A program made the position numbers and the translations under genes. The notes below the pieces were generated by a model. It saw nothing but the letters and a program-made list of their open reading frames with translations. It was not told the origin of the DNA and did not search any database. Below, piece by piece: positions 6,222-35,538 of a stretch of 40,943 nucleotides of DNA. The stretch comes from Verrucomicrobiota bacterium (GTDB lineage Bacteria; Verrucomicrobiota; Verrucomicrobiia; Limisphaerales; JADLHS01): NCBI GenBank assembly GCA_031423875.1, contig JANPGI010000565.1, forward strand, positions 1 to 40,943, written 5' to 3'. Within the stretch, counting starts at the first letter, position 1, and every line of letters begins with the position of its first letter.

Positions 6222-6584
6222 ATGAAAACTCCAAAGAAAAACAAGACCGTTCGCACGAAGCGGGTCACGGCGAAGTCCCCGGCCACCCGGTCCAAGGACA
6301 AATATGTCCTGCGACTGTTCGTGGCGGGCGCCACGGCGCGCTCGCGGCAAGCCGTCCTGCGCGTCCGGCAACTCTGCGAAGCGGAATTAAAAAATGGTTG
6401 TGACTTGAAAGTGATAGACATCTATCAGCAGCCCGAACTGGCGCGCGCGAACCAGATCGTCGCCACCCCGACGCTCATCATGGAATTTCCCAAACCGGTG
6501 CGCCGGTTCATCGGCAACCTGTCCAACACCGACGGCCTCTTCGTCGAGTTGGCCGTGACCACCAAAGGTAAAATCGCGCTGTGA
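6222..6584 (+). CDS. kaiB: KaiB (second, divergent copy)
   Basis: YVLRLFVAGAT.RS..AV, VIDIYQQPELA...QIVATPTL, FIGNLS. Confidence 0.93.
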   Translation: MKTPKKNKTVRTKRVTAKSPATRSKDKYVLRLFVAGATARSRQAVLRVRQLCEAELKNGCDLKVIDIYQQPELARANQIVATPTLIMEFPKPVRRFIGNLSNTDGLFVELAVTTKGKIAL

Positions 6585-6639
6585 AACAACTCGTTCAAAA
6601 CTTCGTAGCTGCCGTCGCTCTGCCGGGCGCATCCGGCAC

Positions 6640-6772
6640 GGAGCGCGGCTGTGTCGCAGCGACCAGCCGCAGCACGGACAACCGGCGCGAGGGCTTTGAT
6701 TTCACCTTGCGCGTCGCTCCTTGCGAAGCTGCTGCGGCTGATCCCGCACGGCGCGGGACACAGCCGCGCTCC
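6640..6772. repeat. Palindromic REP-like element (related family B)
   Basis: Terminal inverted arms GGAGCGCGGCTGTGTC ... GACACAGCCGCGCTCC with inner CAGCCGCAGCA / TGCTGCGGCTG. Confidence 0.8.
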
Positions 6773-6783
6773 GGAGGCAGGCG

Positions 6784-8091
6784 ATGAAAACTACGCGCGA
6801 AAAAATCCCCGGAGCGCGGGCGGTCCCTCGCCCGCAGCGCGTCGCCAGACCGGGACGCGCCGGAAAATTCCGCAGCCCTCGCCTTGATCCCGCGCTGCGA
6901 CCGGGGACCGGTCGCGCTCCGGGGGCGGAGCTCGTCAGTCTCCGCACCCGGCTTGCCATCGCAGACGAAACCCTCCGCGCCATCCGCAACGGCGAAGTGG
7001 ATGCAGTCATGGGTTCGGGCAAACAACGTGACCAAGTGTTCTCGTTGGAAGGCGCGGAACACGCCTACCGCCTGTTGATCGAATCCATGAACGAAGGCGC
7101 ACTGACGTTGACGGCGGACAAGATGATTCTGTTCGCCAACCAGTGCTTTGCCGACATGGTCAAGTGCCCGCTGGAACAGGTGACGGGCAGTTCGTTCCGC
7201 CGTTTTCTTTCCGCTGAAGACCGGGCGATCCTCCGCCCGCTCATGAAACGCGCCGCCCAATCCGGCTCTAAAATCCAGGTGCTGCTCCATGCCAGCGATG
7301 GTTCACTCATCCCGGCGCTGCTTTCTATTCGCGAACTGGCCAACGAAGGTTCCAAGGATGTGATCATCGGTATGGTGGTGACGAACATGACAGAAGCGCG
7401 GCGCAACGAGGAGATGTTGCGCGCCTTGACGCACCGCGTGGTGCAAGTGCAGGAGGCCGAACGCGCCAGCGTGGCCCTCGAATTGCACGATAACATCACG
7501 CAGTTACTTTGCGCCGTCCTCGTACGCAGTCAGACATTGGCGGATAAACTTTCGCCGCGCGACGGTTCATCGAAGAAAGAAGCGATCAAGCTCCGGGAAA
7601 TGCTCGGCCAGACCGCCGACGAAGTGGAGCGCATCTCGCGCAATCTGCGGCCCAGCGTTTTGGACGAGCTGGGATTGGTGGCCGTCCTGCGCGATACCAC
7701 CACGGAGTTCGCGGAGCGGACGGGCGTGGTACTCAAGTTGACATGCGTGGAGTTGACCGCGCGACTGCCCGCCGAGACCGAACTGGCACTCTACCGCATT
7801 CTCCAGGAAGCCTTGAAAAATTTGGAACAGCACGCCTGCGCCCGGCACGTGACGGTGCGACTGACGCAACCGGGCGACTTTGTGCAGTTGAATATCTCTG
7901 ACGACGGGATCGGCTTCGACGGCAAACATCATGCCGCCCGCCGAAAAGGGAAGAGCGTCCTTGGCCTGCTCGGCATGAGGGAACGCGCCGCCTATGTGGG
8001 CGGTGTCCTCACGGTCAAATCCGGTCGCCGCGCGGGCACAGAAATCGAGGCGCGCATTCCTCTGGCGACGGACATTACAACGACAAAATAA
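6784..8091 (+). CDS. PAS sensor histidine kinase (HisKA_3) directly downstream of kaiB
   Basis: GGAGG RBS at 6773-6777; ETLRAIRNGEVDAV N-terminal motif, PAS, ALELHD H-box, QEALKN, DDGIGF, GLLGMRERA. Confidence 0.92.
   Translation: MKTTREKIPGARAVPRPQRVARPGRAGKFRSPRLDPALRPGTGRAPGAELVSLRTRLAIADETLRAIRNGEVDAVMGSGKQRDQVFSLEGAEHAYRLLIESMNEGALTLTADKMILFANQCFADMVKCPLEQVTGSSFRRFLSAEDRAILRPLMKRAAQSGSKIQVLLHASDGSLIPALLSIRELANEGSKDVIIGMVVTNMTEARRNEEMLRALTHRVVQVQEAERASVALELHDNITQLLCAVLVRSQTLADKLSPRDGSSKKEAIKLREMLGQTADEVERISRNLRPSVLDELGLVAVLRDTTTEFAERTGVVLKLTCVELTARLPAETELALYRILQEALKNLEQHACARHVTVRLTQPGDFVQLNISDDGIGFDGKHHAARRKGKSVLGLLGMRERAAYVGGVLTVKSGRRAGTEIEARIPLATDITTTK
6807..6924. repeat. Palindromic REP/REPIN-like element (family A, copy 2), inside the kinase 5' coding region
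   Basis: Same terminal arms as 3933-4051, different spacer. Confidence 0.85.
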
Positions 8092-8100
8092 AACTGACTT

Positions 8101-8790
8101 ATGAAATCAAAAAAAATCACCGTCCTGCTCGCGGAAGACCACATGATCGTGCGCGAGGGATTTCGCAAGATGCTCGAACTCGAAGCTGACTTTGAAGTTG
8201 TGGGCGAAGCCCAGGATGGCCGCGCGGCGGTCACCATGGTTAAAAAATTACTTCCCGCCGTGGTGTTGATGGACATCGCCATGCCGTTGCTCAATGGATT
8301 GGAAGCCACGCGCCAGATTCTCAAAGCCGGGCCCACCAGCAAAATAATCATCCTCTCCGCGCATAGTGATGATGCGTATGTGAAAAACGCCATCGAGTCC
8401 GGCGCGGTGGGATTTTTGCTCAAACAAACTTCCGCCCACGACGTCTGCCGCGCGATCCGGGAAGTTCACGCCGGGAAAACTTTTTTCAGCCCCTCGATTT
8501 CCAAGCGGCAAGATCGTCTCCACCCACAAGTGCCAGACCGCACTGGCGCGCTGAAAAAGAAAGCCGCTGAATTGACTTCGCGAGAGATGGAAGTGTTGCA
8601 ACTCATCGCCGAAGGCAAGGCCAACAAAGAAACCGCCGGGGAACTTGGCATCGGCATCAAGACCGTCGAGAAACATCGCGAGCATCTCATGGAGAAGCTC
8701 GACATCCACGACACCGCCAGCCTCACCCGCTACGCCATCGGCGCGGGGATCATCGAGAGCAGCGTGCAGTTGACCATTAAACAGAGTTGA
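8101..8790 (+). CDS. NarL/FixJ-family response regulator (REC + LuxR HTH)
   Basis: LLAEDH, VVLMDIAMP, FLLK; LTSREMEVLQLIAEG..NKE.A..LGI..KTVEKHR. Confidence 0.95.
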   Translation: MKSKKITVLLAEDHMIVREGFRKMLELEADFEVVGEAQDGRAAVTMVKKLLPAVVLMDIAMPLLNGLEATRQILKAGPTSKIIILSAHSDDAYVKNAIESGAVGFLLKQTSAHDVCRAIREVHAGKTFFSPSISKRQDRLHPQVPDRTGALKKKAAELTSREMEVLQLIAEGKANKETAGELGIGIKTVEKHREHLMEKLDIHDTASLTRYAIGAGIIESSVQLTIKQS

Positions 8791-9112: not shown

Positions 9113-9202
9113 TTGGACGTTGGAATTAGTCAGTGTGGTTAGACCAACGCAAACCAAAAGAAAGAAACATGATCACAACCCAGCTTGAAAGGATCCAAAG
9201 CA

Positions 9203-10513
9203 ATGTTAACTAAATTAAATCCACGCGTCCAAATCCTCACTTTGTTTTTGCTGGGTCTGACCCTCCCGCACCAGTTCGCCACCGCAGCGCAAGCGCCCGT
9301 ACCCTTGGGAAGTGCTGGCAACTTCGGCGTGCTCGCCGCCTCCACTGTCACCAGCAGCGGGGCCACTGTCGTCACTGGCGACCTGGGAGTCTGGCCAGGT
9401 ACTTCGGTAGCCGGCTTCCCGCCCGGAAAGGTGGTTGGGACTATGCACGTCACCGATCCGGCCGCGCAGGCAGCACAGGGCGATCTTACCACCGCGTATC
9501 TCGACGCCGAAGGACGAACTACTGCTCCGGTTTCCGTTGCCGGAAATATCGGTGGCCAGACCCTGCCTCCAGGACTGTATAAGTCCACCTCCTCGTTGCA
9601 GATCTCATCCGGCGATCTGACGCTCGACGGACAAGGCGATCCCAATGCCGTCTTCATTTTCCAGATTGCCTCCACCTTGGTCACCACGTCTGGTCGTCAG
9701 GTGATCCTCATCGGCGGGGCACAGTCGGCTAATGTGTTTTGGCAAGTCGGCAGTTCCGCGACCATCGGAACCACCTCGGGCATGAAAGGCAACATCTTGG
9801 CCCTTGAGTCGATTGCCATTCAGACAGGCGCAACACTTCAAGGCAGAGCCTTGGCCCGAACTGCCGCAGTGACCCTCGAGGGCAATGAAATGACGGTGCC
9901 CACGCTTGGCGGGGGCGGTGGTGGCGGAGTCGTAGTGACTCCTTCGACCAACGTTTTTGTGAACGCCGTCTCGCCCATCACGTTGAATCCGCAGACCGGC
10001 CTGTTCGAGCAGACCGTTCGGTTGACCAACAGCAGTGCCAGCACCGTCGCGGCCGTCCAACTCCTTATCCAGGCCCTGCCGTCCGGCGTTCAGGTTTATA
10101 ATGCGAGCGGCAGCATCAACAGCACGCCCTTCGTGCAATATGGTTTTCCCCTCGCTTCTGCTGCGTCAGTTAATTTGTTGATCGAGTATTATCGCGCCAA
10201 TCGCCTGTCCATTCCCCAGCCGGCCTTTCTAGTTCGGGAAACCGCTCCACTCCCCGTGACCGCAACCGGCCCGGTTATCACAATCAATACAAACACGTTG
10301 GTGGCTGGACGGTTCCTGATCGAATTTTCAGCCACCCCGGGAGGCCGTTACGCGGTGCAGTACAGCAGCAACATGACAAACTGGAAAACCGCCGATCCCA
10401 TCATCACCGCCCCGGCCAATCGGGTGCAGTGGTACGATGACGGCCCGCCCAAAACTGAAAGCAAACCAACCACTGTCGGAAGCCGGTTCTACCGGATCAT
10501 GGTTCTACCTTGA
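9203..10513 (+). CDS. Secreted DUF3494 ice-binding-like protein with C-terminal domains
   Basis: Signal peptide; LGSAGNFGVLA, GDLGV.PGTSVAGFPPG, PGLYK, VFIFQI, NVFWQVGSSAT, GRALA; alternative TTG start 9185. Confidence 0.88.
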   Translation: MLTKLNPRVQILTLFLLGLTLPHQFATAAQAPVPLGSAGNFGVLAASTVTSSGATVVTGDLGVWPGTSVAGFPPGKVVGTMHVTDPAAQAAQGDLTTAYLDAEGRTTAPVSVAGNIGGQTLPPGLYKSTSSLQISSGDLTLDGQGDPNAVFIFQIASTLVTTSGRQVILIGGAQSANVFWQVGSSATIGTTSGMKGNILALESIAIQTGATLQGRALARTAAVTLEGNEMTVPTLGGGGGGGVVVTPSTNVFVNAVSPITLNPQTGLFEQTVRLTNSSASTVAAVQLLIQALPSGVQVYNASGSINSTPFVQYGFPLASAASVNLLIEYYRANRLSIPQPAFLVRETAPLPVTATGPVITINTNTLVAGRFLIEFSATPGGRYAVQYSSNMTNWKTADPIITAPANRVQWYDDGPPKTESKPTTVGSRFYRIMVLP

Positions 10514-15058: not shown

Positions 15059-15105
15059 GGTAGGGTAACACCCCATAGCATCAGCCAGTCCTTTCCAAGC
15101 ATTGT
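15059..15105 (+). promoter_or_regulatory. Regulon box (15067-15078) plus weak -10-like CATTGT 15100-15105
   Basis: Exact 12-mer, GGTAGGGT left arm. Confidence 0.7.
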
Positions 15106-15169
15106 GGGGATGAGAAAAGAGAACGCTCCGACAGAAGCAAGTGGGTTCTCTCCCGATGAATCGCCGACC

Positions 15170-15556
15170 ATGAAACACAACAAGAACCATGACAATGCTC
15201 CAGACGCAGCCCAAGCATTGATGCCGGTTCACTTTGAGTTCACTCACCTGACCGCTGTCACTGTTTGCGTTGCAGGCACGTTCAACAACTGGCATCCCAC
15301 CACCAAAGCCATGCACCCAGCCGGGAGCGGCCATTGGATGAAGGAAGCCTTCTTGCCACCCGGCAAATACGAATACTGCCTCGTAGTGGATGGCCAATGG
15401 ATTCCTGATCCAAGTGCTTTGGAAACCGTGCCCAATCCTTTCGGCGGAAGAAACTCGATCTTGAATGTGGCCTGCTCCCCGGAAGCCGCCCATCGCGCGG
15501 ACGCACAAAATCTACCGTTGAAAAACACAAACAAAAAGAACACCAAAAAAATATGA
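15170..15556 (+). CDS. Glycogen-binding (CBM48 / AMPK-beta-like) domain protein
   Basis: V.VAGTFNNW, LPPGKYEY..VVDGQW..DP....VPNPFGGRNS. Confidence 0.88.
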   Translation: MKHNKNHDNAPDAAQALMPVHFEFTHLTAVTVCVAGTFNNWHPTTKAMHPAGSGHWMKEAFLPPGKYEYCLVVDGQWIPDPSALETVPNPFGGRNSILNVACSPEAAHRADAQNLPLKNTNKKNTKKI

Positions 15557-15852
15557 GCAAAGAAACCCAAGCCATCAGTCATGACGTAAGCCAACTGGCC
15601 GAAGACGCCCGCGCGTTGATGACCGCCACCGCCGATGTCGCCGGAGAAAAAGTTGGCGAAGCCCGCAAACGCCTTGCCGCCGCCTTGGATCAGGGCAAGG
15701 AAATCTACGGTCGCGTCCGTGACAAAGCCGTCGAAGGCGCAAAGGTCGCTGACAAAACCGTCCGCGAGAATCCTTATCAAGCCATCGCCATCGGCGTCGG
15801 CGTCGGGGCGCTCGTCGGTTATCTCCTGGGACGCCGTTGCTCCCGCGATTGA
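15553..15852 (+). CDS. DUF883 ElaB/YqjD-family tail-anchored protein
   Basis: Amphipathic helix, D..VRENPYQAIAIGVGVGALVGYLLGRR. Confidence 0.9.
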   Translation: MSKETQAISHDVSQLAEDARALMTATADVAGEKVGEARKRLAAALDQGKEIYGRVRDKAVEGAKVADKTVRENPYQAIAIGVGVGALVGYLLGRRCSRD

Positions 15853-15859
15853 TCCCGTT

Positions 15860-16249
15860 ATGGAAGAATCCTCCGTCAGCTTCAAGCAACTGGCCGCGAC
15901 CTCGAAACAGTTCGCGCGCCGGCTGTTGACCATCGGTGAAAACCGGCTCGAATTGTTGACGGTGGAAGTGCAGGAGGAGCGTGAGCGTCTCCTGCACGCC
16001 ATTTTACTCGCGCTTGGCGTGGCGACATTTGGTCTGCTGACCGCCATCACCGCCACGGCGTTGGTCGTCGTTTTCTTCTGGGCCTATTCTCCCGTGCTGG
16101 CGCTCCTCGTTTTGACCGCGCTCTACGGAACGGCTGGTGTTTATCTTTACCTACAACTCACCGCTCGACTGCGGAACGCGCAGACACTCGCCGCCACTCT
16201 GGAACAACTCCGAAAGGACCGCGCATGTTTGGAAAAAGCTCTCGAATGA
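15860..16249 (+). CDS. YqjE-like (phage holin family) two-TM membrane protein
   Basis: RLELL.VE.QEER, two TM helices, TLEQLRKDR; typical position after DUF883. Confidence 0.82.
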   Translation: MEESSVSFKQLAATSKQFARRLLTIGENRLELLTVEVQEERERLLHAILLALGVATFGLLTAITATALVVVFFWAYSPVLALLVLTALYGTAGVYLYLQLTARLRNAQTLAATLEQLRKDRACLEKALE

Positions 16250-16551
16250 ATCCCCTCGCCACGCGTAAACAGATGTTGATTGCCGAAAGCGAACTCAACC
16301 GCGCGCACTTGGTTCAAGACTGGCAGACGATGGCGGGCGAAGTTCACGCGCTGGCTGATGAAGTGCAAACCCTCCGCTCCATGGCCTCTGCCGCTGGCTC
16401 ATTGGTAGCCGGTCTTGCCGCGTTGCGACGCAAGAAATCTGCGCCCGCTGAAAAACCGGCATGGTGGCAAACTCTTCTCAAAGGCGCGGGTCAGATTTCC
16501 ACACTCTGGTCGGCATTTCGTGCGCCTAGGCACGTTCCAAAAGACACTTAG
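16246..16551 (+). CDS. YqjK-like protein
   Basis: RKQMLIAESELNR..L motif; ATGA overlap; synteny with DUF883-YqjE. Confidence 0.65.
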   Translation: MNPLATRKQMLIAESELNRAHLVQDWQTMAGEVHALADEVQTLRSMASAAGSLVAGLAALRRKKSAPAEKPAWWQTLLKGAGQISTLWSAFRAPRHVPKDT

Positions 16552-16574
16552 TCGAACTTCAGAAATACAAATCT

Positions 16575-17288
16575 ATGTTACGCAGCATCAAACAACTCTA
16601 CGGAAACAAACTCGGCGCGACCGATGGCGAAATCGGTCATGTGAAAGATTTTTACTTCGACGACCAGAATTGGGCCATCCGTTATCTGGTCGTGGACACG
16701 GGCAACTGGTTGCCCGGACGACAGGTGCTCCTCTCGCCCTATTCGCTCGGACGTCTTGATCAGGTTGAAAAAGTCCTGCGCGTGAACCTGACCCGGAAAC
16801 AGATTGAGAACAGTCCTTCGATTGATCTGCACAAGCCGGTGTCGCGCCAATACGAGGAGGAGTATTACCGCTATTTCGGCTGGCCGTATTACTGGCAGGG
16901 TGAAGCGCTGTGGGGGCTCAGCGGCTTCCCGATTTTGGAAGCAGCGGGTCAACCGCTCCCGTACGAATCCGCCATGGCTAACAATCCGGCCACCGTTCCT
17001 CCTGACGCCCATCTGCGCAGCACGCAAGCCGTGAACGACTATCAAGTCCGCACGGGCGAAGACATGATTGGTCACGTCTGCGATTTCATGATGGACGCCG
17101 GGAGTTGGAAAATCGGTCAGTTGGCCGTCAAAACCGGCCACCGACTTTCCGGCATCGAGAAGCTGATCACGACAAAGGAAGTGGACCGCATCAGTTATGA
17201 GGAATCCACGGTGTTCGCGACTTTGACCCAGGAAGTTGTCGTGCCGAGTTCTACGCCCGACCCGGCGGCAACCGTTGCGTCACCTTGA
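16575..17288 (+). CDS. Double PRC-barrel domain protein
   Basis: L.G..L.ATDGEIGHVKDFYFDD..W.IRYLVVDTG.WLPGR.VLLSP; second barrel HLRST..V..Y....IGHV.DF. Confidence 0.88.
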   Translation: MLRSIKQLYGNKLGATDGEIGHVKDFYFDDQNWAIRYLVVDTGNWLPGRQVLLSPYSLGRLDQVEKVLRVNLTRKQIENSPSIDLHKPVSRQYEEEYYRYFGWPYYWQGEALWGLSGFPILEAAGQPLPYESAMANNPATVPPDAHLRSTQAVNDYQVRTGEDMIGHVCDFMMDAGSWKIGQLAVKTGHRLSGIEKLITTKEVDRISYEESTVFATLTQEVVVPSSTPDPAATVASP

Positions 17289-17408
17289 CGCCGTCATCCT
17301 ATCCTTGCCTTACGGGATTGGCGGGCCCGAAGACGTTGACACCGTTTGCTCGCGGAGGAAGTCCCCCCCGTCGTGACAACCGGGCGATTCCAAAATAGAT
17401 TTTACCGC

Positions 17409-17504
17409 ATGAACACCGTCGCCCTCTACGACACCAAACCTTACGACCGCGAATACTTTGAGCGCGCGCGGAAGCGAACCTGCTTCGCAGTTGAAAAGGG
17501 ATGA
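17409..17504 (+). pseudogene. Truncated copy of the ldhA 5' end (20 matching codons)
   Basis: 17409-17467 matches 23436-23494 at 55/59 nt (MNTVALYDTKPYDREYFERA), then diverges and stops. Confidence 0.85.
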
Positions 17505-17579
17505 AAGAAAAATCGCCCGAGTTTCCGGAGAAGGGAAATGAGATTCATTCCCAGACATAAGGCAGAAGGCAAAAGTAGT

Positions 17580-18479
17580 TCAGTCTGACAACGCCGCCCG
17601 AGCTTTCGACGTGATGGCGAGCACCGCCGGGTGCGTCAACTTGCGTTCGGCGCTGATGGCGTAGAATTGCTGGCGGCAATCCTCGGTGCGCCCGATGACT
17701 TGGAAGCCGTAGCGCGCGACCGCTTCTTTCACCACCAAGGTCGGCAAGGCGAAGAAGCCGAGGCCGTCCACCGCCGCCACTTTCATCAAGGCGGCGTCCT
17801 CGAATTCCGCCACGAGTCGCGGGCGAATATCTTCGGCTTGAAACCATTTCTCCAGTGATTGGCGCAGCGCGGCGTTGCTCGCGGGCAGCAGAACGGGCGC
17901 TTCGTTCAGTGACTTGGGAAATTTGCGCTTGAGGGTGGCAGCCAGTTTGCGCTCCGCGCAGAAGGTCACGCCACATTCGCCGAGCAGGTGGTTGAAAACT
18001 TTAATGGGGAGCGAACTGGGCGCAGGTTCGTCCGCCAGCACAATGTCCAGCCGATGGGCGGCCAGTTGGCCGAGCAGATCGGCGGCTTTGCCTTCACGGC
18101 AAACGGCTTGGATGGGCTGTTCCAGTTTGAAGATGGGTTTGATGATTTCGTAGCTGACCAGTTTGGGTAGCGAATCGGTGATGCCGATGTGGACGCGCAA
18201 CGGGCGTGCGCTGGGCTGTTGCCGGGCGGCGTCGAGTAACTCTTGCCCCAGCGAAAAAATCTCCTCGGCGTAGCTCAACACCCGGTGGCCAGCCTCGGTC
18301 AACGCCAGGGCGCGTCCACCGCGTCGAAAAAGTTTTTCCTCGAGCACGCCTTCCAGCGCCGCAATCTGCGCGCTGATGGTGGGCTGGGAGACGTGCAGTT
18401 TGTCCGCCGCCTTGCGCAAGCCGCCTTCTTTGGCGACCACCCAGAAATAACGCAGGTGATGGTAGTTCAAGAATTCCAC
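17580..18479 (-). CDS. nhaR: LysR-family regulator, NhaR type
   Basis: LNYHHLRYFWVVAKEG....AA..LHVSQPTISAQI, GITDSLPKL..Y, EFEDAALMK, FYAISAERKLTHPAV. Confidence 0.9.
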   Translation of the reverse strand: MEFLNYHHLRYFWVVAKEGGLRKAADKLHVSQPTISAQIAALEGVLEEKLFRRGGRALALTEAGHRVLSYAEEIFSLGQELLDAARQQPSARPLRVHIGITDSLPKLVSYEIIKPIFKLEQPIQAVCREGKAADLLGQLAAHRLDIVLADEPAPSSLPIKVFNHLLGECGVTFCAERKLAATLKRKFPKSLNEAPVLLPASNAALRQSLEKWFQAEDIRPRLVAEFEDAALMKVAAVDGLGFFALPTLVVKEAVARYGFQVIGRTEDCRQQFYAISAERKLTHPAVLAITSKARAALSD

Positions 18480-18490
18480 GCGGTCATGGT

Positions 18491-18557
18491 ATTCGCTTTA
18501 ACCTAAGAGTCCATTCCAAAAGTCATAATAGGCTAATGGTGATGCCGCCCCTATTCT
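18491..18557 (+). promoter_or_regulatory. Putative LysR binding sites (two ATTC-N9-TAA boxes 22 bp apart) and -10 TATTCT
   Basis: 18491-18506 and 18513-18528 each contain T-N11-A; divergent intergenic region. Confidence 0.45.
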
Positions 18558-18563
18558 GTCGCC

Positions 18564-18794
18564 ATGAAAACGACAATCACTTTGAAAGAGTTCGGTGACT
18601 TGCCACCAGTCGCGGTCCAGGTCACACACGCAACCGCGCCGGCAATCTCGGAGTCGTCACCCCAAATAACCCCGAGAGCGTCCAGGGTCTCCATGTCCCG
18701 CTGGACAGAAGCGACGAAAGCTTTCGCGAGTTGCCGCACCAACGCCACCCCGCTCCGTTTCCCTGCGAGTCGCCATATCAGCGGGGCGGGATAA
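18564..18794 (+). CDS. Small hypothetical leader ORF (76 aa)
   Basis: ATG 7 nt after TATTCT; no recognisable family. Confidence 0.35.
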   Translation: MKTTITLKEFGDLPPVAVQVTHATAPAISESSPQITPRASRVSMSRWTEATKAFASCRTNATPLRFPASRHISGAG

Positions 18795-18844
18795 ACGAGT
18801 AACTGAGAAGCGAACGCAAACCTCAACTACCGACATCACGCATC

Positions 18845-19207
18845 ATGAAAATCCAATTCCGAATTCGCGGCCTCAACGCCAATGCCAACCTGCGCGGCTG
18901 GTTGGAGAAACAACTCGAACGCTTGCGCAGCCTCATCCCCGTCTCCACCGCCGAAGTGGTGTTGGAACGGGAGCAGGACAGCGCGCCCGCCTTCCGCGCG
19001 CATGTGCATCTGGCCGTGCCCGGCCCGGACATTCATGCCGCCGCCCGCGACCACACGTTGGAAGCCGCTTGGCTGAAGGTGACCAATAACTTGCTCAAAC
19101 AAATCGAACGGCGCAAAACCCGGCAGCACCAAAAGCTGAAAAGCAACCGGCAGCGCCCGGTTATTGCAAGCCGCTGGTCAGGAGCGATGGCGGGTCAACG
19201 CGCGTAA
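18845..19207 (+). CDS. HPF/RaiA-family ribosome-associated protein
   Basis: MKIQFRIRGL, HLAVPGPDIHAAARDHTLEAAW..V...L.KQI.RRK. Confidence 0.8.
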   Translation: MKIQFRIRGLNANANLRGWLEKQLERLRSLIPVSTAEVVLEREQDSAPAFRAHVHLAVPGPDIHAAARDHTLEAAWLKVTNNLLKQIERRKTRQHQKLKSNRQRPVIASRWSGAMAGQRA

Positions 19208-19231
19208 GCCAGCAAATATTCAAAACGAACT

Positions 19232-20182
19232 ATGACTGAACAAGCTTGGCTCTGGCTCGGCTTCAACGTCTTCGTCCTCGCGATGCTGGCGCTGGACCTC
19301 GGCGTGTTCCACCGCAAGTCGCACGTCGTCTCGGTCCGCGAAGCCATGGCCTGGACGGTCGCGTGGATCACACTCGCGCTGCTGTTCAATCTCGGCGTGT
19401 GGCATTACTCGGGGGCGCAGAAGGCGCTGGAATTCACCACCGGCTATCTCATCGAGTATTCGTTGAGCGTGGACAACATCTTCGTCTTCGCGCTGCTGTT
19501 CTCTTATTTTGCCGTGCCGCCGAAGTTCCAGCACCGGGTGCTTTTCTGGGGCATCCTCGGCGCGCTGGTGTTGCGGGCCATCATGATCGGGGCGGGCACG
19601 GTGCTCATCGCGAAATTCGCGTGGATCATCTATGTGTTCGGCGCGTTCCTCATCCTCACCGGGATCAAGATGATCGTGAAACGCGAGGAGGAGATTCATC
19701 CCGAGCGCAACCCGGTCGTGAAGTGGTTCAAGAAGCTCATGCCGGTGACCAGCGACTATCGCGAGGACAAATTCTTCGTGCGCGAAAACGGCGTCCGCAT
19801 GGCCACGCCGCTGTTCTTGGTGCTGTTGCTGGTCGAAGTCTCCGACGTGATTTTCGCCGTGGACTCGATCCCGGCCATCTTCGCGGTCACGACCGATCCG
19901 TTCATCGTCTATACGTCGAACGTGTTCGCCATCCTCGGCCTGCGCTCGCTGTATTTCGCGCTGGCGGGGGTGATGGACAAATTCCATTACCTCAAGATCG
20001 GCCTGGGCGTGGTGCTGACATTCGTCGGCGTGAAGATGCTGCTGGCGCACACGGCTTGGAAGATTGACACGCTGGTGTCGCTGGGCGTGATCCTGTTCAC
20101 CCTGGCCATGTCGGTGGTGATGTCGCTGCTGCGCCCGAAGAAGAAGGTCATCCCTGCCGTGCCTCCCAAAGTGGTGAGTTGA
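19232..20182 (+). CDS. terC: TerC/Alx-family membrane protein
   Basis: LALDLGVFHRK, GYLIEYSLSVDNIFVF, QHRVLFWGILGA, DVIFAVDSIPAIFAVT.DPFIVYTSNVFAILGLRSLYF. Confidence 0.93.
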   Translation: MTEQAWLWLGFNVFVLAMLALDLGVFHRKSHVVSVREAMAWTVAWITLALLFNLGVWHYSGAQKALEFTTGYLIEYSLSVDNIFVFALLFSYFAVPPKFQHRVLFWGILGALVLRAIMIGAGTVLIAKFAWIIYVFGAFLILTGIKMIVKREEEIHPERNPVVKWFKKLMPVTSDYREDKFFVRENGVRMATPLFLVLLLVEVSDVIFAVDSIPAIFAVTTDPFIVYTSNVFAILGLRSLYFALAGVMDKFHYLKIGLGVVLTFVGVKMLLAHTAWKIDTLVSLGVILFTLAMSVVMSLLRPKKKVIPAVPPKVVS

Positions 20183-20184
20183 AC

Positions 20185-21393
20185 ATGGCCCAGCCCATAC
20201 ATCCCATGCAACAATTGATTGAAAGCGTCCGCCCTTCGCCGTCGGAGGCGCGGGCGGCGATCTCGCTCGGCATCATCGGCGGGGGGCAACTTGCTAAAAT
20301 GACCGCGCAGGCGGCGGCCCAATTTGGTTGCGAGGTGGTGATCTTGGAACGGCAGTCCGAGTTTCCTGCGGGCAGTCTCGCCACTCAAACACTCCTCGGC
20401 GACTGGGACGATCCGGATTCGTTGCTCGAACTCGCGTCGTTGGTGGATGTGGTCACATTGGAGAATGAATTCGTGGACGCCGCCGCGCTGGCCGTGCTGG
20501 AGCAGCGCGGCCACACGCTCTGGCCGTCGTCCGCCACGATGCGTCTCATCCAGGACAAACTTGTCCAAAAACAAACGCTCGCCAAAGCCGGTTTGCCCGT
20601 GCCCCGGATGCGCGCGGTGGAGCGGATTGAGGAAGTGGTGGCGACCGCGACCGAGTGGGGGCTTCCGCTCCTGCTCAAAGCCCGGCGCAACGCCTACGAC
20701 GGCAAGGGCAACGTGACCCTTCGTTCCATCGCAGAGATTGAAACGGCGTGGAATAAACTGGACGGCCACTACGGCAATCCGTTGTTTGCTGAAGATTTTT
20801 GTCCGTTCACCCAAGAGCTGGCCGTCATCGTCACTCGCGGTGTCAATGGCGATGTCGTGACCTATCCCGTGGTGGAAACCGTGCAGCGCGAGCATATCTG
20901 CCACCTCGTGAGCGCGCCTGCCTCGGTCGCGGAGGAAACTGCGCGGCGCGCGACCGACATCGCCCGGCGTGCAATCGAAGCGGTCGATGGTGTTGGCAGC
21001 TTCGGTGTCGAAATGTTCCTTATGCCCGGTGGCGAAATCGTCATCAACGAACTCGCGCCGCGCGTCCACAACTCGGGGCATTACACCATCGAAGCCTGCG
21101 CGTGTTCGCAGTTTGAAAATCACGTCCGCGCCGTGCTTGGCTGGCCGCTCGGTTCACCCGCGCTGCGCGCGCCTGCCGCCGTCATGGTCAACCTGCTGGC
21201 TAACGCCGATGGCCCAGGGACGCCGCAAGGTTTGGCGGGAGTCTTGCAAGTGCCCGGCGCGCACGTCCACATTTACGGCAAAGCCCGCAGCGGCAAAGGT
21301 CGCAAGATGGGCCATGTCACCGCGCTCGGCGCGACACCCGGAGAAGCGTTGGCCGTCGCCCAACGCGCCGCTGATTGCATTCGTTTCGGTTGA
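20185..21393 (+). CDS. purK: N5-carboxyaminoimidazole ribonucleotide synthase
   Basis: [54 protein letters not shown]....RKMGHV. Confidence 0.96.
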
Positions 21394-21398
21394 GCCAA

Positions 21399-21950
21399 AT
21401 GAAATCCAAGATTCGCAATCCAAAATCAAAAGCGCCGGCCTGCCCGCCGCAGGTCGGCATCATCATGGGCAGCGATTCCGACTGGCCGACGATGAAGCTG
21501 GCCGCCGACGCCTGCACCGAGTTCGGCATTGCGTGTGACGTGCGCGTCGTCTCCGCGCACCGCACGCCGCTGGACATGGTGCGCTACGCGCGCACGGCGC
21601 ACACGCGCGGACTGCGCGTCATCATTGCGGGGGCGGGCGGCGCGGCGCACCTGCCCGGCATGGTCGCCAGCCTCACGCCGCTCCCCGTCATCGGCGTGCC
21701 GGTCGAAAGCAAATCACTGACGGGACTTGATTCGCTACTGTCCATCGTGCAGATGCCAGGAGGCGTGCCGGTCGCGACCGTCGCGATTGGCGGCGGACGG
21801 AACGCCGGATTGCTGGCGGTGCGGATTCTCGGCGCGAACGATCCTGCGTTGTGGCTGCGCATGGTCTCCTTTCAAACCCGCCTTGCGAAGGAATCACGCG
21901 CCAAGGATCGAAAGCTACGGGCCGAAGTCAGAACCCAATACCGATTTTGA
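21399..21950 (+). CDS. purE: N5-CAIR mutase
   Basis: [51 protein letters not shown]. Confidence 0.96.
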
Positions 21951-21952
21951 CC

Positions 21953-22933
21953 ATGGAAATCCTCGACGCCATCCGCGCCAACCTGCTGTCGCCCGCCGTG
22001 CTGTTCTTCGCGCTCGGCCTCATCGCCGCGCTGATGAAAAGCGACCTCAAGTTTCCCGAGCCGCTTTACGTGGCGCTGACGATTTACCTGCTCGTGGCCA
22101 TCGGCTTCAAAGGCGGCGTGGCCATCGCTGCGGCCGGCCTCGCCAAGGTCTGGTTGCCTGCGCTGGCGGCCTTGGCACTCGGTGCGTTGATTCCGCTGTG
22201 GACCTATCCGCTGCTGCGCTTCGGTGGAAAATTTTCCGCCGTGGACTCCGCCGCCATCGCGGCGCATTACGGCTCGGTCAGCGCGGTCACGTTCATCGCA
22301 GCGACCAATTATCTGAAAGCCGTCAACCAACCTTACGAGGACTACGCCACGGCATTTCTCGCCGTGATGGAATCGCCCGCCATCCTCGTGGGTGTGGTGC
22401 TGGGCAAACTGGCCACGAAGACGGAGGGCGGAGGTGCGGGCGTGTCGCTTAAGCAAGTGATGCACGAGGCGATCTTCGGTCGCAGCATCTTCCTGCTCGT
22501 CGGCGCGCTCGTCGTTGGCGCGCTGTGCGGCAAGCCTGGCATGGAAAAGGTGGAGGCGTTCTTCGTCACGCCATTTCAGGGCGTGCTCGCGCTCTTCCTG
22601 CTGGAAATGGGCATGGTCGCCGGGCGGCGGCTGGAGGATCTGAAAAAGGTCGGGCTGTTCCTGCTCGGCTTCGGAGTGCTTGTGCCGTTGGTCAATGGCG
22701 CGCTCGGGGTTTATCTCGGCAAGTTCGTCGGGCTTGAACTCGGCGGGGCGACGTTGCTCGGCGTTTTGGCCGCGAGCGCGTCTTACATTGCCGCTCCGGT
22801 CGCCATCCGCATCTCACTGCCCGAGGCGAATCCGACGCTTTACCTCACGGCTTCACTCGCCATCACGTTCCCGTTCAACATCACGCTGGGCATCCCGATT
22901 TATCTGGAGATCGCCCGCCATCTCTACTCTTGA
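21953..22933 (+). CDS. sbtA: Sodium-dependent bicarbonate transporter, SbtA/DUF897 family
   Basis: NLLSP..LFF.LG, KSDL..P, YLL.AIGFKGG, AAHYGSVSAVTF, MESPAI, FLLEMG, SASYIAAP, TFPFNI.LGIP. Confidence 0.92.
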   Translation: MEILDAIRANLLSPAVLFFALGLIAALMKSDLKFPEPLYVALTIYLLVAIGFKGGVAIAAAGLAKVWLPALAALALGALIPLWTYPLLRFGGKFSAVDSAAIAAHYGSVSAVTFIAATNYLKAVNQPYEDYATAFLAVMESPAILVGVVLGKLATKTEGGGAGVSLKQVMHEAIFGRSIFLLVGALVVGALCGKPGMEKVEAFFVTPFQGVLALFLLEMGMVAGRRLEDLKKVGLFLLGFGVLVPLVNGALGVYLGKFVGLELGGATLLGVLAASASYIAAPVAIRISLPEANPTLYLTASLAITFPFNITLGIPIYLEIARHLYS

Positions 22934-22937
22934 AACC

Positions 22938-23240
22938 ATGAACACACACCCGATGAAACTGGTCACCATTGTCTGCGAAACCCACGCGCGGGACGCGGTA
23001 ACGAAACTTCTCCGCGAAGTTGGGGCGCATGGCCACACACTCTTCGCGGTGGAAGGCGACGGTTCGCAGGGCAAACGTCCGGGGGACATCCCCGAGTTTG
23101 CGAACATCCAGATCGAAGTCGTCGTGTCACCGGCAGTCGCAGACACTTTGCTAACGCGGCTGGAAAAGGAATTCTTTCCCCGCTATGCGATGATCGCTTT
23201 CGAGTGCGAGGTGCGGGTGTTGCGAAAGGAAAAATTCTAA
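22938..23240 (+). CDS. sbtB: PII-like protein (SbtB type)
   Basis: KLVTIVCE, GA.G.T...V.G.GS.G.R, NI.IEVVV, EV.VLR.EKF; directly after sbtA. Confidence 0.82.
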   Translation: MNTHPMKLVTIVCETHARDAVTKLLREVGAHGHTLFAVEGDGSQGKRPGDIPEFANIQIEVVVSPAVADTLLTRLEKEFFPRYAMIAFECEVRVLRKEKF

Positions 23241-23435
23241 CCGGACTTCGTACGATGCTTCGTTTCCGTAGATTGTTCGGCCTCCATTGGCTTGGTAATG
23301 TTCGCCGAGCCTGATAAGCATTTGGTCCGAATTGAAAACCGTTTTGCCCCACGGTGGCCTCGTTGACCCGCGCGAGCCGCTCCGCGACGAAGAGCCGTTG
23401 GGCTACCACACAATTCCTGAACAGAAATTTGCCAC

Positions 23436-24434
23436 ATGAACACAGTTGCCTTCTACGACACCAAACCTTACGACCGCGAATACTTCGAGCGCGCCGCCGA
23501 TGCCGAACAGTTACGTTGCCAGTTCCACGAATTCCGCCTCACCACGGAAACCGCCGCCAGTGTGAATGGCGCGCAGGCCGTCTGTGTGTTCGTCAACGAC
23601 CGGCTCGACGCCGCGTGCCTGAAGCAACTTCACGATGCTGGCGTCCGGCTCGTGGCGTTGCGCTGTGCCGGGTTCAATAATGTTGATCTCGCGGCGGCCA
23701 AGTCGCTTGGCGTCGCCGTCATCCGCGTGCCGGCGTATTCGCCGCACGCCGTGGCCGAGCACGCCATCGCGCTCCTGCTCGCGCTCAATCGTAAGATCCA
23801 CCGCGCTTACAATCGGGTGCGCGAACACAACTTTTCCTTGAGCGGTCTGGTTGGTTTCGATCTGCACGGCAAAACGGTCGGCGTAGTCGGCACGGGCAAG
23901 ATCGGCAAGATCGCGGCGCAGATTTTTCGCGGGTTCGGCACAGACGTGCTGGCCTACGATCCGTATCCCGCGACCGAATGGGCGGCGGCACTAAGCGTTC
24001 GCTACACCGATTTTGAAACATTGCTCGCCGCGAGCGACATCGTTTCACTGCACCTGCCGCTCACGCCGCAAACCCGCCATCTGCTCAATGCAGAAAACTT
24101 TGCGCGCATGAAGCCCGGCGCGTTCCTCGTCAACACGAGTCGCGGCAAACTGGTGGATACCACCGCGCTCATCGAGGCGCTCAAGAGCGGGCGGATCGGC
24201 GGAGTGGCGCTTGATGTTTATGAGGAAGAGGAAGGCGTCTTTTTCGAAGATCATTCCGGCGAGATATTGCAGGACGACGAATTGTCGCGCCTACTGACTT
24301 TCCCCAACGTGCTCATCACCGCCCATCAAGCGTTCCTCACGCACGAGGCGTTGAGCGAAATCGCGCGTGTGACTACGGAGAATCTGTTGCGCTCAGGCAC
24401 TGAAGACTATCTACCCGGCACCCGCCTTGCCTGA
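23436..24434 (+). CDS. ldhA: D-lactate / D-2-hydroxyacid dehydrogenase
   Basis: VCVFVND, ALRCAGFNNVD, VPAYSPHAVAEH, GTGKIG, NTSRG, LDVYEEE, FPNVLITAHQAFLT. Confidence 0.93.
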   Translation: MNTVAFYDTKPYDREYFERAADAEQLRCQFHEFRLTTETAASVNGAQAVCVFVNDRLDAACLKQLHDAGVRLVALRCAGFNNVDLAAAKSLGVAVIRVPAYSPHAVAEHAIALLLALNRKIHRAYNRVREHNFSLSGLVGFDLHGKTVGVVGTGKIGKIAAQIFRGFGTDVLAYDPYPATEWAAALSVRYTDFETLLAASDIVSLHLPLTPQTRHLLNAENFARMKPGAFLVNTSRGKLVDTTALIEALKSGRIGGVALDVYEEEEGVFFEDHSGEILQDDELSRLLTFPNVLITAHQAFLTHEALSEIARVTTENLLRSGTEDYLPGTRLA

Positions 24435-31911: not shown

Positions 31912-34900
31912 TTATTTTTTCCAGCCGCGCAGATAAAGCAGCTCTTCAAACTCTTTGAACTCAGGAGTTCCCGAGATTGTCTGCTTAAATTTGCTGTGAA
32001 GTTGCGAGTGATGTTCGTGAAGGAACGGATGATCCTCGCCTCTCGTAACCGCATTAACGTAGCGGCAGCTTTCTCTGGGAAAAGTGTCGAGCAGTGGACT
32101 CTTGAGCAATTTGTCGATGATGCTGTAAGCGAAAACTCCCTTGAGGCGCATTTGCACGATGCGTTGAACTGCTTCAGGAAAGACAGAACCCAAATAAAGA
32201 CACCAATCAGCCATCGCCTTTGTTTCTTGATCCAACAACGCGACTGGCACTCCGACCAGGCGTGAATCGAGGTATTCTTTTAGCCAAAGATTCCAGACTT
32301 CACCTGCCTTCTCAGTCGACGCTTCAAGAAACTTTCCCATTCCTTGCGCCAGCGAGCCGCGAACTTTTTCGGGCAGGCGAGGAAGAAAATCGCGGAAGAA
32401 ACCAGACGCTATAGGATTTTTTATTACACGCATTGCCAAGCCGGCCAGGTAGTGCCCGAGATTGTGCAAAGTGTGCTCATCAAATTGATCGGTTTTCTCT
32501 GGTGCATCCTTCAGCATGGCTGTGACCCGCTCAGAAACTTGCCGGTAATACGGCAACAATTGTTCCTCCAACTCAATGAATGTCGCCTGTCGGTAGTTCA
32601 GGAGCACCGACCATGTCTGCTGAGCCATCACGGCGTCTCGTTGCCAGTCGAGCAGCGGAAGAAAATGCTCGGTCGCGAATTTTTTGTCCCAGACAAAGAT
32701 GTAACCCATCCAAGGAGTCATCGCGATTCGAGCATAAACTTTGATTCGGCTCGTGCCTTGAATCGCTTCCTTCATTTTGGATTTCAGGCTCTGCGGTATT
32801 CCTTCCCATTCTTTCCCTGCCCGCTGTCGAAGATGGCTGCAATAATGCACCCAAAACTCTCCAATCCACCCGCCTTCGTGATTTATCGCGCTGGTTAACC
32901 ACTCTCGGTAACTGTCATCAGGTGTTTCTTCGACCTTGCTACATATTGCCCACGCTCGATCCATTAGGACGGCGGCTCTGCTGATAATTGCTTCCTCCGA
33001 TTTGATCTCGGCTTCCGCTCTCCAAATGTCGGAGATCAAGCTCGCCAAACCGGCAAATATTTCTGGAAGTTCTGGAAGCCCATCCACCACGCCTAGAATC
33101 CAAACCCAATCTTCCTTTGCTTTAGCCATTTGCTTCCATGCGGAAAAGACACCGTTCCAAATTTCTTTTGTCGCACCGTCCCTCTTTGAAAGCTCTTCGG
33201 TAAACTCTTTGCCCCACATTTTGTTTTTTCCGAAGAGCGCCTGCAAAAGACTCAAATGATCCCAACGATCTCGCCTCATTGAACTTTCAACGGCCCTCAA
33301 AAGACTGTCGACGAATCGAGAAGGCGGCTCAGAGAGTATTTCGTCGACGTTGAAACCCTCCGTGGGATCAATAAATCCTGCATCGCCACTCCAGTGATCA
33401 AAGGCGGGATGCTCGCGTTCTGCAAAGTTAGGATACGCTTTCCTAATCTTTTCAAGCGCATCGGCAACCAGAGAGCATTTCGTGTCTGCTTTGCGGAGCC
33501 ACATCAAGACGTTGAATTGTTCGTATGCGCCCGTCTCTGACCCGAGTCTCTTTTTGAGCGTCCCTTTGAACCCCTGTTCGATACGTCTCATCAATCTCTT
33601 GCGACTGGCTTCAGATGAACTTGGATACGCCACATTGAGGACATCGAACACTTCCTTCTTCATTCCCAAACGAAAGATGAGGTCATTGGTCAAGAGCCAT
33701 TCCAGACGTTCGTCACCGCTTGGCTTCGGATCAACTGAAATCCCGAAGACAGCCAGACGTTGCAGCAAGGGGAGTTTCGACGACCACCACGCCTCAACCT
33801 GTGTCCGCGCTCTCGCTGGATTGACCTGAAACCAGTGGAGCAACACGTCTCGCAGAAGGTCGATGAGCACCGACAAACATTCGTGCAGCGCATGGTGATT
33901 CTGTTCGTGTTCTGCTATCGAACTGCGCTGCCAACTGAGAATGTCCGTGTATTCATCTGCCTTGCCGACGCCGCGAAGCAATATGTGGGCAAGAGTAATC
34001 TGCTTAGTCGCGAGAAGTGCCAATGGTTCTGCTAGCAGATCCAGATTGGGCTTTAGCACTGTTTTCCACGCTTCATCAAGCCAGTGCCTCGATCCATCAG
34101 GCCAAACAATTTCGTAATCCACTTTCTTTTTCGACGTTTGTTTTGGTTTCTTCTCGCCGCCATCAGCGATCATCCCGGAAAAATCAAAATGTTTTCGCAG
34201 GTGGACTTGCGGTGTGGTCAACAATTCAAACAACCGCAAAGCGATGCCGGCGTCTTTGGGGATTCGGCATTTCTGGAGTAGATACGCCCACATGTCTTGC
34301 GATAGCGCTTGCTCACCTTGCGAAAGCAACAGTGAAACCCAGGTCGAAAAATGTGGGTCAGGAGATTTTTTATCTTCAGCCCAAACGACATGACCGAAAA
34401 TCTGTGTGAATGATCCGGAAAGGCGTTGATGCTGTGCTTGGATCATCTCCAAAAGCAACTCGGGATGCTTCCTGCGGACGAAAGTGGACAGCCAATGAGC
34501 GATAACACGTTGGTAATGCTGTAAATCCACTTTTGAATCGGCGAAGAAAACCTTGAAGTAGCCTTTGGCGTTCATCCAGCCAATCCATGCTGGATGCCGG
34601 ATCGCGTTACAGAAATCTTGAGCCAATTGAGGATGCCGCAAGCAGTAATCCAGATATTCAGAAACCGTCTCACTTTCGGGCGGTAAGCTCGCGGCAATGC
34701 TCTTCATCCTTCTTGAACGATGAAGAAGCGATTCTTTGTTGTTCTTCGCCCATCCGACAAAGTGATCGGTTAGTGCTTGATGCTTATTTTCGGCGTTCGA
34801 GGGATCGATCGGATATTGCTGCACGCTGATTTCCAAATGCGCCCATTGATCCACCTCCTCCTGGCCTAAATTTGAAGGCCTTAACGTCCAACGAGGTTTG

Positions 34901-35538
34901 ACCTGCGCCTGATTTAATCCACGCGCGAGATACGTTGTTGTAACGTCGTTATGGCTGTAGCCAACGAACAGCACCGTGTATTCCGAAAAAAGTGAGATCA
35001 GAAAATCACGCGCCCAGCCTCGCGTGAGATAGGCTGCTCCAAAATTCTTGTCCGTCAGCACCATCGTTTGCGGATTTTCTCTTGCCGAACCGTGGAGATA
35101 AACAATCCCATGAAAGTCATCGCCCAGTGGCAAAGCCGGAGCACAGAATTCTTTGACCGCTCGTTTTCGGAAAACACTCCGCGCCGCAGCAGAGAAATGG
35201 TCGTCAAAATTAGTTGTGACGATCCGCACCTTGTCTGGCGAGCCAAAAATTTTCAGAGCTTGCTTGTGCAACTCTGTGGGATGTGTTTTGGGATGGTAGA
35301 GGATTTTTGCCGCCACTGCGTGAACGTCAGTTCCATTGCGCGCCAGTTTTCCAAGCACTTGATCTTCCTTACCGGATGGAACTGAAGGCTGGCTGCAAAT
35401 TTGGCAAGCAAGCCCATTGAACAAAGGAAGATTCGATGGAGGCGGGAGTGAAACGCCTGCGCCTGCAAAAATAACCAATCGGCCTTCTTCCAAGGCTATT
35501 CTGATTTGATCTGGTAATCGGACACCTGCAAAAATCAT
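31912..35538 (-). CDS. SIR2-domain large protein (SIR2_2 + helical/DUF4020-like), probable anti-phage NADase, Dsr1-like
   Basis: IFAGAGVS, IVTTNFD, YLHGS, LFVGYSHND; 1208 aa; visibly more AT-rich than flanks. Confidence 0.8.
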   Translation of the reverse strand: MIFAGVRLPDQIRIALEEGRLVIFAGAGVSLPPPSNLPLFNGLACQICSQPSVPSGKEDQVLGKLARNGTDVHAVAAKILYHPKTHPTELHKQALKIFGSPDKVRIVTTNFDDHFSAAARSVFRKRAVKEFCAPALPLGDDFHGIVYLHGSARENPQTMVLTDKNFGAAYLTRGWARDFLISLFSEYTVLFVGYSHNDVTTTYLARGLNQAQVKPRWTLRPSNLGQEEVDQWAHLEISVQQYPIDPSNAENKHQALTDHFVGWAKNNKESLLHRSRRMKSIAASLPPESETVSEYLDYCLRHPQLAQDFCNAIRHPAWIGWMNAKGYFKVFFADSKVDLQHYQRVIAHWLSTFVRRKHPELLLEMIQAQHQRLSGSFTQIFGHVVWAEDKKSPDPHFSTWVSLLLSQGEQALSQDMWAYLLQKCRIPKDAGIALRLFELLTTPQVHLRKHFDFSGMIADGGEKKPKQTSKKKVDYEIVWPDGSRHWLDEAWKTVLKPNLDLLAEPLALLATKQITLAHILLRGVGKADEYTDILSWQRSSIAEHEQNHHALHECLSVLIDLLRDVLLHWFQVNPARARTQVEAWWSSKLPLLQRLAVFGISVDPKPSGDERLEWLLTNDLIFRLGMKKEVFDVLNVAYPSSSEASRKRLMRRIEQGFKGTLKKRLGSETGAYEQFNVLMWLRKADTKCSLVADALEKIRKAYPNFAEREHPAFDHWSGDAGFIDPTEGFNVDEILSEPPSRFVDSLLRAVESSMRRDRWDHLSLLQALFGKNKMWGKEFTEELSKRDGATKEIWNGVFSAWKQMAKAKEDWVWILGVVDGLPELPEIFAGLASLISDIWRAEAEIKSEEAIISRAAVLMDRAWAICSKVEETPDDSYREWLTSAINHEGGWIGEFWVHYCSHLRQRAGKEWEGIPQSLKSKMKEAIQGTSRIKVYARIAMTPWMGYIFVWDKKFATEHFLPLLDWQRDAVMAQQTWSVLLNYRQATFIELEEQLLPYYRQVSERVTAMLKDAPEKTDQFDEHTLHNLGHYLAGLAMRVIKNPIASGFFRDFLPRLPEKVRGSLAQGMGKFLEASTEKAGEVWNLWLKEYLDSRLVGVPVALLDQETKAMADWCLYLGSVFPEAVQRIVQMRLKGVFAYSIIDKLLKSPLLDTFPRESCRYVNAVTRGEDHPFLHEHHSQLHSKFKQTISGTPEFKEFEELLYLRGWKK

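Follow-up and report, generated by a model that had tools for sequence, protein, structure and literature searches.

SbtA and SbtB are a textbook pair, and in cyanobacteria their genes are regulated by NdhR. It is for carbon concentration in cyanobacteria that the pair is chiefly known (PMC8352866). We have analysed a related pair in a 40,943-nucleotide (nt) stretch from a Verrucomicrobiota bacterium (the window; GenBank assembly GCA_031423875.1), which is one whole contig of a 4.1-Mb assembly, the host genome (G000; 91.5% complete, 5.7% contamination). Here sbtA and sbtB end a co-oriented run, hpf-terC-purK-purE-sbtA-sbtB, which is divergent from the gene of an NhaR-type LysR regulator (Table 1). 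We think it probable that the block 17468-23404 is a transferred low-CO2 rescue module, consisting of an NhaR-type activator, SbtA-SbtB and PurK-PurE. If so, a non-photosynthetic host would keep making DNA building blocks at scarce CO2, and in bacteria without carbon fixation purine synthesis would give bicarbonate importers a concrete sink. The parts are already known, as is LysR control of sbtAB in cyanobacteria; a literature search, covering few subscription journals and no supplements, gave no description of an sbtA-purKE operon or of NhaR control of carbon genes.

As in Synechocystis (Slr1512/Slr1513; structures 7CYE/7CYF) and marine Synechococcus (SbtA2/SbtB2), an SbtA-family permease is followed by a PII-like SbtB, here 4 nt downstream. 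The permease matches Synechocystis SbtA (7CYE) with an E-value of 1e-31, and the crossover motifs of transmembrane segments 4 and 9, with Ser114 and Ser324, are common to both. These are two of the four docked HCO3- residues (taken from PMC8352866) that the alignment to Synechocystis SbtA1 shows to be kept. SbtB matches SbtB structures and TTHA0516. The locus differs from the cyanobacterial system in that Tyr140 and Ser327 are replaced, SbtB is without the C-terminal CGPxGC hairpin, the regulator is NhaR-type with 18-20% identity to CcmR rather than NdhR/CcmR itself, and the host has no carbon-fixing Rubisco, so that PurK would be the consumer. By its sequence, this SbtA is placed outside the cyanobacterial SbtA1 subfamily. 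A second comparison is with the DabAB pumps and their LysR genes in H. neapolitanus and heterotrophs. According to bioRxiv 10.1101/476713, these are also carbon pumps found in Rubisco-less genomes and thought to feed heterotrophic carboxylases, their LysR genes are needed in air, and the role of the pumps in heterotrophs is left open. The transporter here is a different one, and the same text, as far as available, holds no link to purK or NhaR.

PurK and PurE are the same two enzymes as those of the purEK operon found in E. coli and the majority of bacteria, with PurE of class I and the catalytic motifs intact. PurK carries the active-site motifs GGGQL, YDGKG, YGK and RKMGH (residue list taken from PMC3261824 and checked in alignment) and scores 384 bits against a TIGR01161 cut-off of 318. 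Both PurE copies of the host genome pass the TIGR01162 cut-off and carry the SAHR and AAHL loops of class I. In contrast to the E. coli operon, the order here is purK-purE, the pair is joined to a permease away from other pur genes, and it forms a second, accessory system next to a housekeeping purE that lacks a purK partner. This housekeeping purE is on the short contig C192, with no purK beside it, and is 60% identical to the cassette PurE. Its assignment to class II (direct carboxylase of aminoimidazole ribonucleotide, AIR, judged by the class II loop and by likeness to PAICS/Treponema-type PurE) was rejected, as its loop, GAAHLAGV, is class I-like. The sequence-only reading saw in this locus an inorganic-carbon supply for a heterotrophic carboxylation, and our analysis supports this with PurK as the enzyme; the second, housekeeping purKE that it considered was found by half, since a second purE is present and no second purK was found in the 91.5% complete assembly, where purK is single copy by profile search of the contigs. 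The purC gene is present in the host genome.

The two PurE types can be told apart by a single residue. We sampled 61 genomes of the same Verrucomicrobiota order (the order sample), 49 of which contributed the 60 rows of a PurE tree. In this tree, the cassette PurE sequences form a clade of 19 rows from seven families (support 97/97), apart from the housekeeping clade of the window's own family (21 rows, support 99/91). The diagnostic residue stands directly after the AAHL(P/A)G loop, four past the AAHL histidine, and the cassette motif is HLPGM. At least one PurE copy had Met at this position in all 23 genomes with purK, and none did in the 26 without; in 10 multi-copy genomes, the lone PurE copy has Val. 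In a blind test across the phylum, where 15 + 15 genomes were chosen by purK status before the residue was inspected, Met was present in 15/15 purK-positive and 0/15 purK-negative genomes. Over all 79 genomes checked (records L106-L145 and L226-L255), Met at this position goes with a PurE that has a PurK partner, and Val/Ile/Ala/Thr with one that has none.

A class I-like PurE without PurK is described as depending on high CO2 (PMC3261824), and the same is stated for Chlorobiota and cyanobacterial purK mutants (PMC10880623). It is likely from these accounts that the lineage's own purine route needs plentiful CO2. The Val-type PurE, having no PurK partner, is proposed to make carboxyaminoimidazole ribonucleotide (CAIR) from non-enzymatically formed N5-CAIR, and therefore would need plentiful CO2; the cassette would add to this route one that uses bicarbonate, together with its supplier. 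If this holds, a single PurE residue, Met or Val, would mark out purine synthesis that is independent of PurK, and most members of an abundant, rarely cultured order would need raised CO2 or purines, while carriers of the cassette would not. For Acidobacteria, PMC4885859 notes raised CO2 as an aid to cultivation and explains it by pH.

We next consider how purK, purE and sbtA are distributed. In the order sample, purE is present in 60/61 genomes, sbtA in 16/61 and purK in 22/61, not counting G014, in which a partial purK lies at the edge of a contig. Fifteen of the 16 sbtA genomes have purK, compared with 8 of the 45 others, and the single sbtA genome without purK holds just a 3' fragment of sbtA. 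Of the eight purK genomes without sbtA, two have DabA, which no other genome of the sample has, and two carry purK-purE-carbonic anhydrase. All 10 genomes with at least two purE genes have purK. In the phylum sample of 301 genomes, the 28 sbtA genomes all fall within the 87 purK genomes; kinship and habitat inflate such co-occurrence counts. At the gene level, purE or purK-purE adjoins sbtA at 9/15 relatives' sbtA loci. We also analysed the best 80 SbtA loci from a scan over 23/64 parts of the collection, a few of which duplicate the relatives' loci: at 20/80, sbtA has a same-strand purK no more than 2.5 kb away, which exceeds chance, and at 25/80 carbonic anhydrase is found at up to that distance. 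The purK-purE-sbtA-sbtB core is tightly packed and recurrent. Phosphoenolpyruvate (PEP) carboxylase is near sbtA at 3/80; this HCO3- user, near sbtA or ending an nhaR cassette, was seen in records L028, L081, L149, L172 and L181. Two Chloroherpetonaceae records (L187, L191) have a carbonic anhydrase with two tandem sbtA genes, and in L032 ilvD sits between purK and purE.

The block was likely acquired by horizontal transfer, judging from sequence comparison. Over 3.1 kb, the cassette DNA is 88% identical to that of a genome from a different family, whose housekeeping PurE belongs to a distant clade, and this points to transfer. A 67-nt direct repeat (91%) joins 17401-17467, which lies beyond nhaR as seen from the operon, to 23428-23494 in the ldhA 5' end, and the left copy with its upstream sequence is 93%/91% identical over 100 nt to the native junction of the ATPase end and ldhA in the relatives G003/G015. 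In four relatives, the similarity to the cassette ends at 23251-23254. Hence, from the repeats of the ldhA 5' end and the relatives' junctions, the block likely came in at, or recombined through, this 5' end. The assembly at both borders is backed by identical contig pieces in the sequencing run X1. A further X1 contig joins 17235 to 24487 (letters between unknown, likeness <95) and is perhaps from a sister strain without the block, although this is a hint only.

The regulator passes the NhaR equivalog model NF008284 narrowly (221.3 against a cut-off of 219 bits). It is the one NhaR-type gene of the host genome; such genes are present in 31/61 genomes of the order. The E. coli NhaR regulon (nhaA, osmC, pgaABCD; PMC6307784) is alike in the equivalog model, a T-N11-A box and cargo of the alkaline-stress type (TerC/Alx, HPF), and E. 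coli NhaR has been linked to rmf/rsd (PMC10003395). In contrast to E. coli, nhaR here is divergent from its targets, the predicted targets include carbon-uptake and purine genes, and the box is a palindrome unlike the A-rich consensus of E. coli. No nhaA was found in the host genome (PF06965) or beside any nhaR locus examined, in line with the sequence-only suggestion of a regulator without an antiporter target. If the rescue module is right, NhaR-type regulators without nhaA would gain a target set.

Just upstream of nhaR we observed a 43-nt element that is strongly conserved in relatives and contains a palindromic T-N11-A box (18492-18506; consensus TTCGG-N5-CCGAA). A matrix was built from 21 sites, after 13 of 34 upstream regions had been dropped as weak, off-position or near-duplicate. 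The element scores 54.5 bits and the next site in the host genome 20.1 bits, so that the genome-wide scan gave no second strong site. Operator copies were also found before carbonic anhydrase in 4/35 regions (those of G015 and G009, with 34.0 and 34.6 bits, lie between purE and the anhydrase gene), before terC in 3/31 and before the peptidase in 3/11; of 505 other genes, 6 have a scoring site, and 5 of these face nhaR. All copies share one orientation relative to the downstream gene, and the background is 0.0009 per region. The operator is likely bound by the NhaR-type regulator. At proteobacterial plasmid loci the matrix gave nothing useful. A sigma-70 promoter scan found no site between nhaR and hpf, and one at 17373-17401 at chance level.

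We propose the following course of events. Low free CO2, probably at alkaline pH, would be the trigger, on which the NhaR-type activator would switch on one transcript from the operator. SbtA would import HCO3- and raise its cytoplasmic level, and SbtB would throttle SbtA by the adenylate state. PurK would fix HCO3- onto AIR with ATP, and the Met-type PurE would perform the mutase step for the PurK product. HPF and TerC would be older alkaline/ion-stress cargo of the same promoter, and ldhA a neighbour that the insertion left behind. At high pH, free CO2 is lost and HCO3- becomes plentiful. Because of this chemistry, the ion- and membrane-stress cargo and the response of E. coli NhaR (PMC6307784), we prefer alkaline pH with Na+ as the trigger.

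Several observations weigh against the rescue module. In this SbtA, Tyr140 is replaced by Leu and Ser327 by Ala, and the one SbtA-like protein from outside the cyanobacteria in PMC4275256, from Labrenzia, showed no activity in E. coli, though the related SbtA2 family is active (PMC13187645). Adjacency of sbtA and purK was found in 0/27 sbtA genomes of the phylum sample other than the host, and their co-occurrence may reflect a common oxic habitat and kinship. At completeness and contamination levels such as those of this assembly, a second purK may be unassembled. The host genome has two beta-carbonic anhydrases, and SbtA may therefore be unneeded for HCO3- supply. Finally, carbon genes were seen at only 6/38 nhaR loci of the order in the fetched DNA (many contigs being short), and the operator precedes sbtA at just 1/80 loci and purK in 0/39 regions.

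The alternative that survives best, though we hold it the less probable one, keeps the same module and lets the NhaR-type protein sense inorganic carbon or a reporting metabolite directly, like NdhR/CcmR, instead of pH or Na+. It draws on the company that NhaR-type genes keep. The sequence-only reading proposed a survey of nhaR neighbourhoods, and the link to sbtA, carbonic anhydrase and purKE was borne out in several phyla: NhaR-type genes face sbtA or purKE in other Verrucomicrobiota, Planctomycetota and proteobacteria, and in several lineages they directly face sbtA, carbonic anhydrase or purKE. At the 80 SbtA loci, an NhaR-type gene is present at 13, on the opposite strand at 12; Luteolibacter, Chthoniobacteraceae and Schlesneria records are among the 13. 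A further sample comprised 301 genomes of the class to which a record titled Betaproteobacteria belongs; sbtA was found in 41/301 and nhaR in 46/300, with both in 15 versus ~6 expected. In 4 of these 15, nhaR lies within 3 kb of sbtA; it faces sbtA-purE-purK, purK-purE-sbtA or sbtA-sbtB, or precedes DUF533-sbtA. A Pseudomonas plasmid (L282; NZ_CP070507.1, 233833-245100) carries, in this order, nhaR, raiA, terC, DUF6671, pyrC, ilvD, sua5, a Mur ligase gene, sbtA and sbtB; an integrase and a Tn3 transposase flank the cassette, with sua5 and the Mur ligase gene frameshifted. The PyrC, IlvD, Sua5 and Mur ligase enzymes are CO2/HCO3- dependent, through a carbamylated lysine or as substrate. Eight of 18 NhaR-type plasmid loci were opened; four have HPF and two TerC, and none of the eight has a gene annotated nhaA, though one has an unnamed cation:proton antiporter nearby. 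On an Aureimonas plasmid (L283; NZ_AP025033.1), a LysR gene is divergent from overlapping terC-sbtA between insertion sequences.

A LysR clade that is sister to NhaR (support 0.965; its best model is NhaR, below cut-off) also speaks for direct carbon sensing. It adjoins dabBA at 4/4 plasmid loci opened (of 88) and is found by sbtAB-purKE or carbonic anhydrase at 17/80 SbtA loci, in Verrucomicrobiota and Alphaproteobacteria (L203 7018-7902, L165 2898-3773, L261-L264), with a similar palindromic box; this clade is a candidate for a dedicated carbon-uptake regulator. On the other side, the commonest cargo at 38 nhaR loci of the order is HPF (23), Zn peptidase (15), TerC (13) and other membrane-stress genes, not carbon genes, and Na+ and high pH induce E. 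coli NhaR (PMC6307784). A fold search of the regulator put CcmR first at 18-20% identity, barely above OxyR and DarR, which is not discriminating, and it identified no ligand. A wider proposal, which is equally tentative, is that NhaR-type regulators and the sister clade form a widespread heterotroph inorganic-carbon switch for pumps (SbtA, DabAB), carbonic anhydrase and spare CO2-dependent enzymes (PurK-PurE, PyrC, IlvD, Sua5), a mobile cure for CO2 dependence, with PurE Met/Val marking a high-CO2 need for purines.

Chance accretion onto a stress island is unlikely. In that case, purKE-sbtAB would have been caught behind an nhaR-hpf-terC promoter, having their own expression or an SbtA with another anion. 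Gene order indeed varies a great deal: some records have terC joined directly to sbtA, with purKE missing, and purKE-sbtAB occur without a nearby nhaR in L026, L030 and L032; the divergent SbtA substrate residues fit as well. Against it, operator copies stand directly before carbonic anhydrase-sbtA, the nhaR-sbtA-purKE adjacency is repeated in an unrelated class, and the gaps from terC to sbtB are just 2-5 nt (the full series from hpf being 24, 2, 5, 2 and 4 nt). Upstream of hpf, a 76-codon open reading frame (ORF) is likely the operon's first gene; it has partial homologues in the same position in relatives L020, L073 and L069 and is split in one relative. No Rfam family matched in the window at gathering score, including the yybP-ykoY riboswitch looked for upstream of terC, so terC is without a detectable riboswitch.

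All eight genes named in the sequence-only reading were confirmed at their positions by Pfam and NCBIfam, but its eight-gene pH-homeostasis operon, with LdhA acidifying the cell at alkaline pH, is very unlikely. The co-orientation of ldhA and the lack of a called + strand terminator between sbtB and ldhA speak for it, and ldhA's usual neighbours (P-type ATPase and universal stress protein, USP, genes) also occur at nhaR loci, which makes read-through possible; such read-through from sbtB into ldhA would be local only. Nevertheless, the 15 sbtA loci of relatives showed no ldhA, and none of 80 further loci has it in the orientation of sbtA (a single distant match, at 32%, lies on the opposite strand). 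The gap from sbtB is 195 nt, the junction is unique to this locus and not shared by relatives, the closest ldhA genes follow P-type ATPase/USP genes, and the operator was seen before ldhA in 0/2 regions. Its membership in the unit is thus not upheld.

A part in an autotrophic CO2-concentrating mechanism, suggested by the cyanobacterial fame of SbtA/SbtB, can practically be dismissed, as the sole Rubisco-family gene is OiaX-like and sits beside an OiaK-like kinase, and no DabA, SulP/BicA or PEP carboxylase was found in the host genome by profile searches. No form I/II Rubisco was found in the 91.5% complete genome either, which agrees with the heterotrophic carboxylation of the sequence-only reading. 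The Rubisco-family gene (locus L279, contig C180), nearest to OiaX, is taken as a sugar-acid enzyme because of this and the adjoining OiaK-like kinase; both genes are under NCBIfam cut-offs. A PF00485 match (E 2e-12) is also present in the host genome. Likewise, the 35 window ORFs scanned with Pfam/NCBIfam include no further pur gene, nhaA or Rubisco, as had been claimed.

Table 1. Features of the nhaR-sbtB block and its borders (window positions).
Feature	Position	Strand	Basis
Remnant of P-type ATPase last codons and first 20 ldhA codons; left border of the block	17365..17467	+	direct repeat
NhaR-type LysR regulator, 299 aa	17580..18479	-	NF008284, 221.3 bits
Conserved LysR-type operator (predicted)	18490..18532		alignment upstream of relatives' nhaR; 54.5 bits
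76-codon ORF, no family	18564..18794	+	no Pfam match
HPF/RaiA-family ribosome-associated protein	18845..19207	+	PF02482; TIGR00741 37.5 bits, slightly below cut-off 40.9
TerC/Alx-family membrane protein	19232..20182	+	TIGR03718, 449 bits
PurK, N5-CAIR synthetase (ATP + HCO3-)	20185..21393, start possibly ATG 20206	+	TIGR01161, 384 bits
Class I PurE (N5-CAIR mutase), Met-type	21399..21950	+	TIGR01162
SbtA-family permease (predicted HCO3- importer)	21953..22933	+	PF05982, 393 bits, full length
SbtB, PII-like regulator	22938..23240	+	PF00543
ldhA-like D-lactate dehydrogenase with upstream remnant	23405..24434 (gene 23436-24434)	+	D-2-hydroxyacid dehydrogenase, under every NCBIfam cut-off

The sequencing runs that hold at least 0.39 of the window are sediment or freshwater-sediment metagenomes from two studies. 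One RNA run holds a 0.05 share, with a relative's contigs across purK-sbtB, which does not demonstrate transcription. To the left of the block, 15104-17288 holds CBM48-like, DUF883, holin-X-like and PRC-barrel genes, a string of general-stress type, and CBM48-like genes also occur at relatives' nhaR loci (L069, L073, L074). Elsewhere in the window, 4124-8790 carries kaiC-kaiB-kaiB between PAS histidine kinases, a CheR/PAS protein and a LuxR response regulator, which is a non-cyanobacterial Kai signalling cluster. At 9185-10513, an ice-binding-like (PF11999) protein is followed by a 340-aa ORF of no known kind, and at 31912-35538, in a GC-poor region (48-51% GC), we observed a SIR2-like domain protein of 1208 aa, a possible anti-phage gene.

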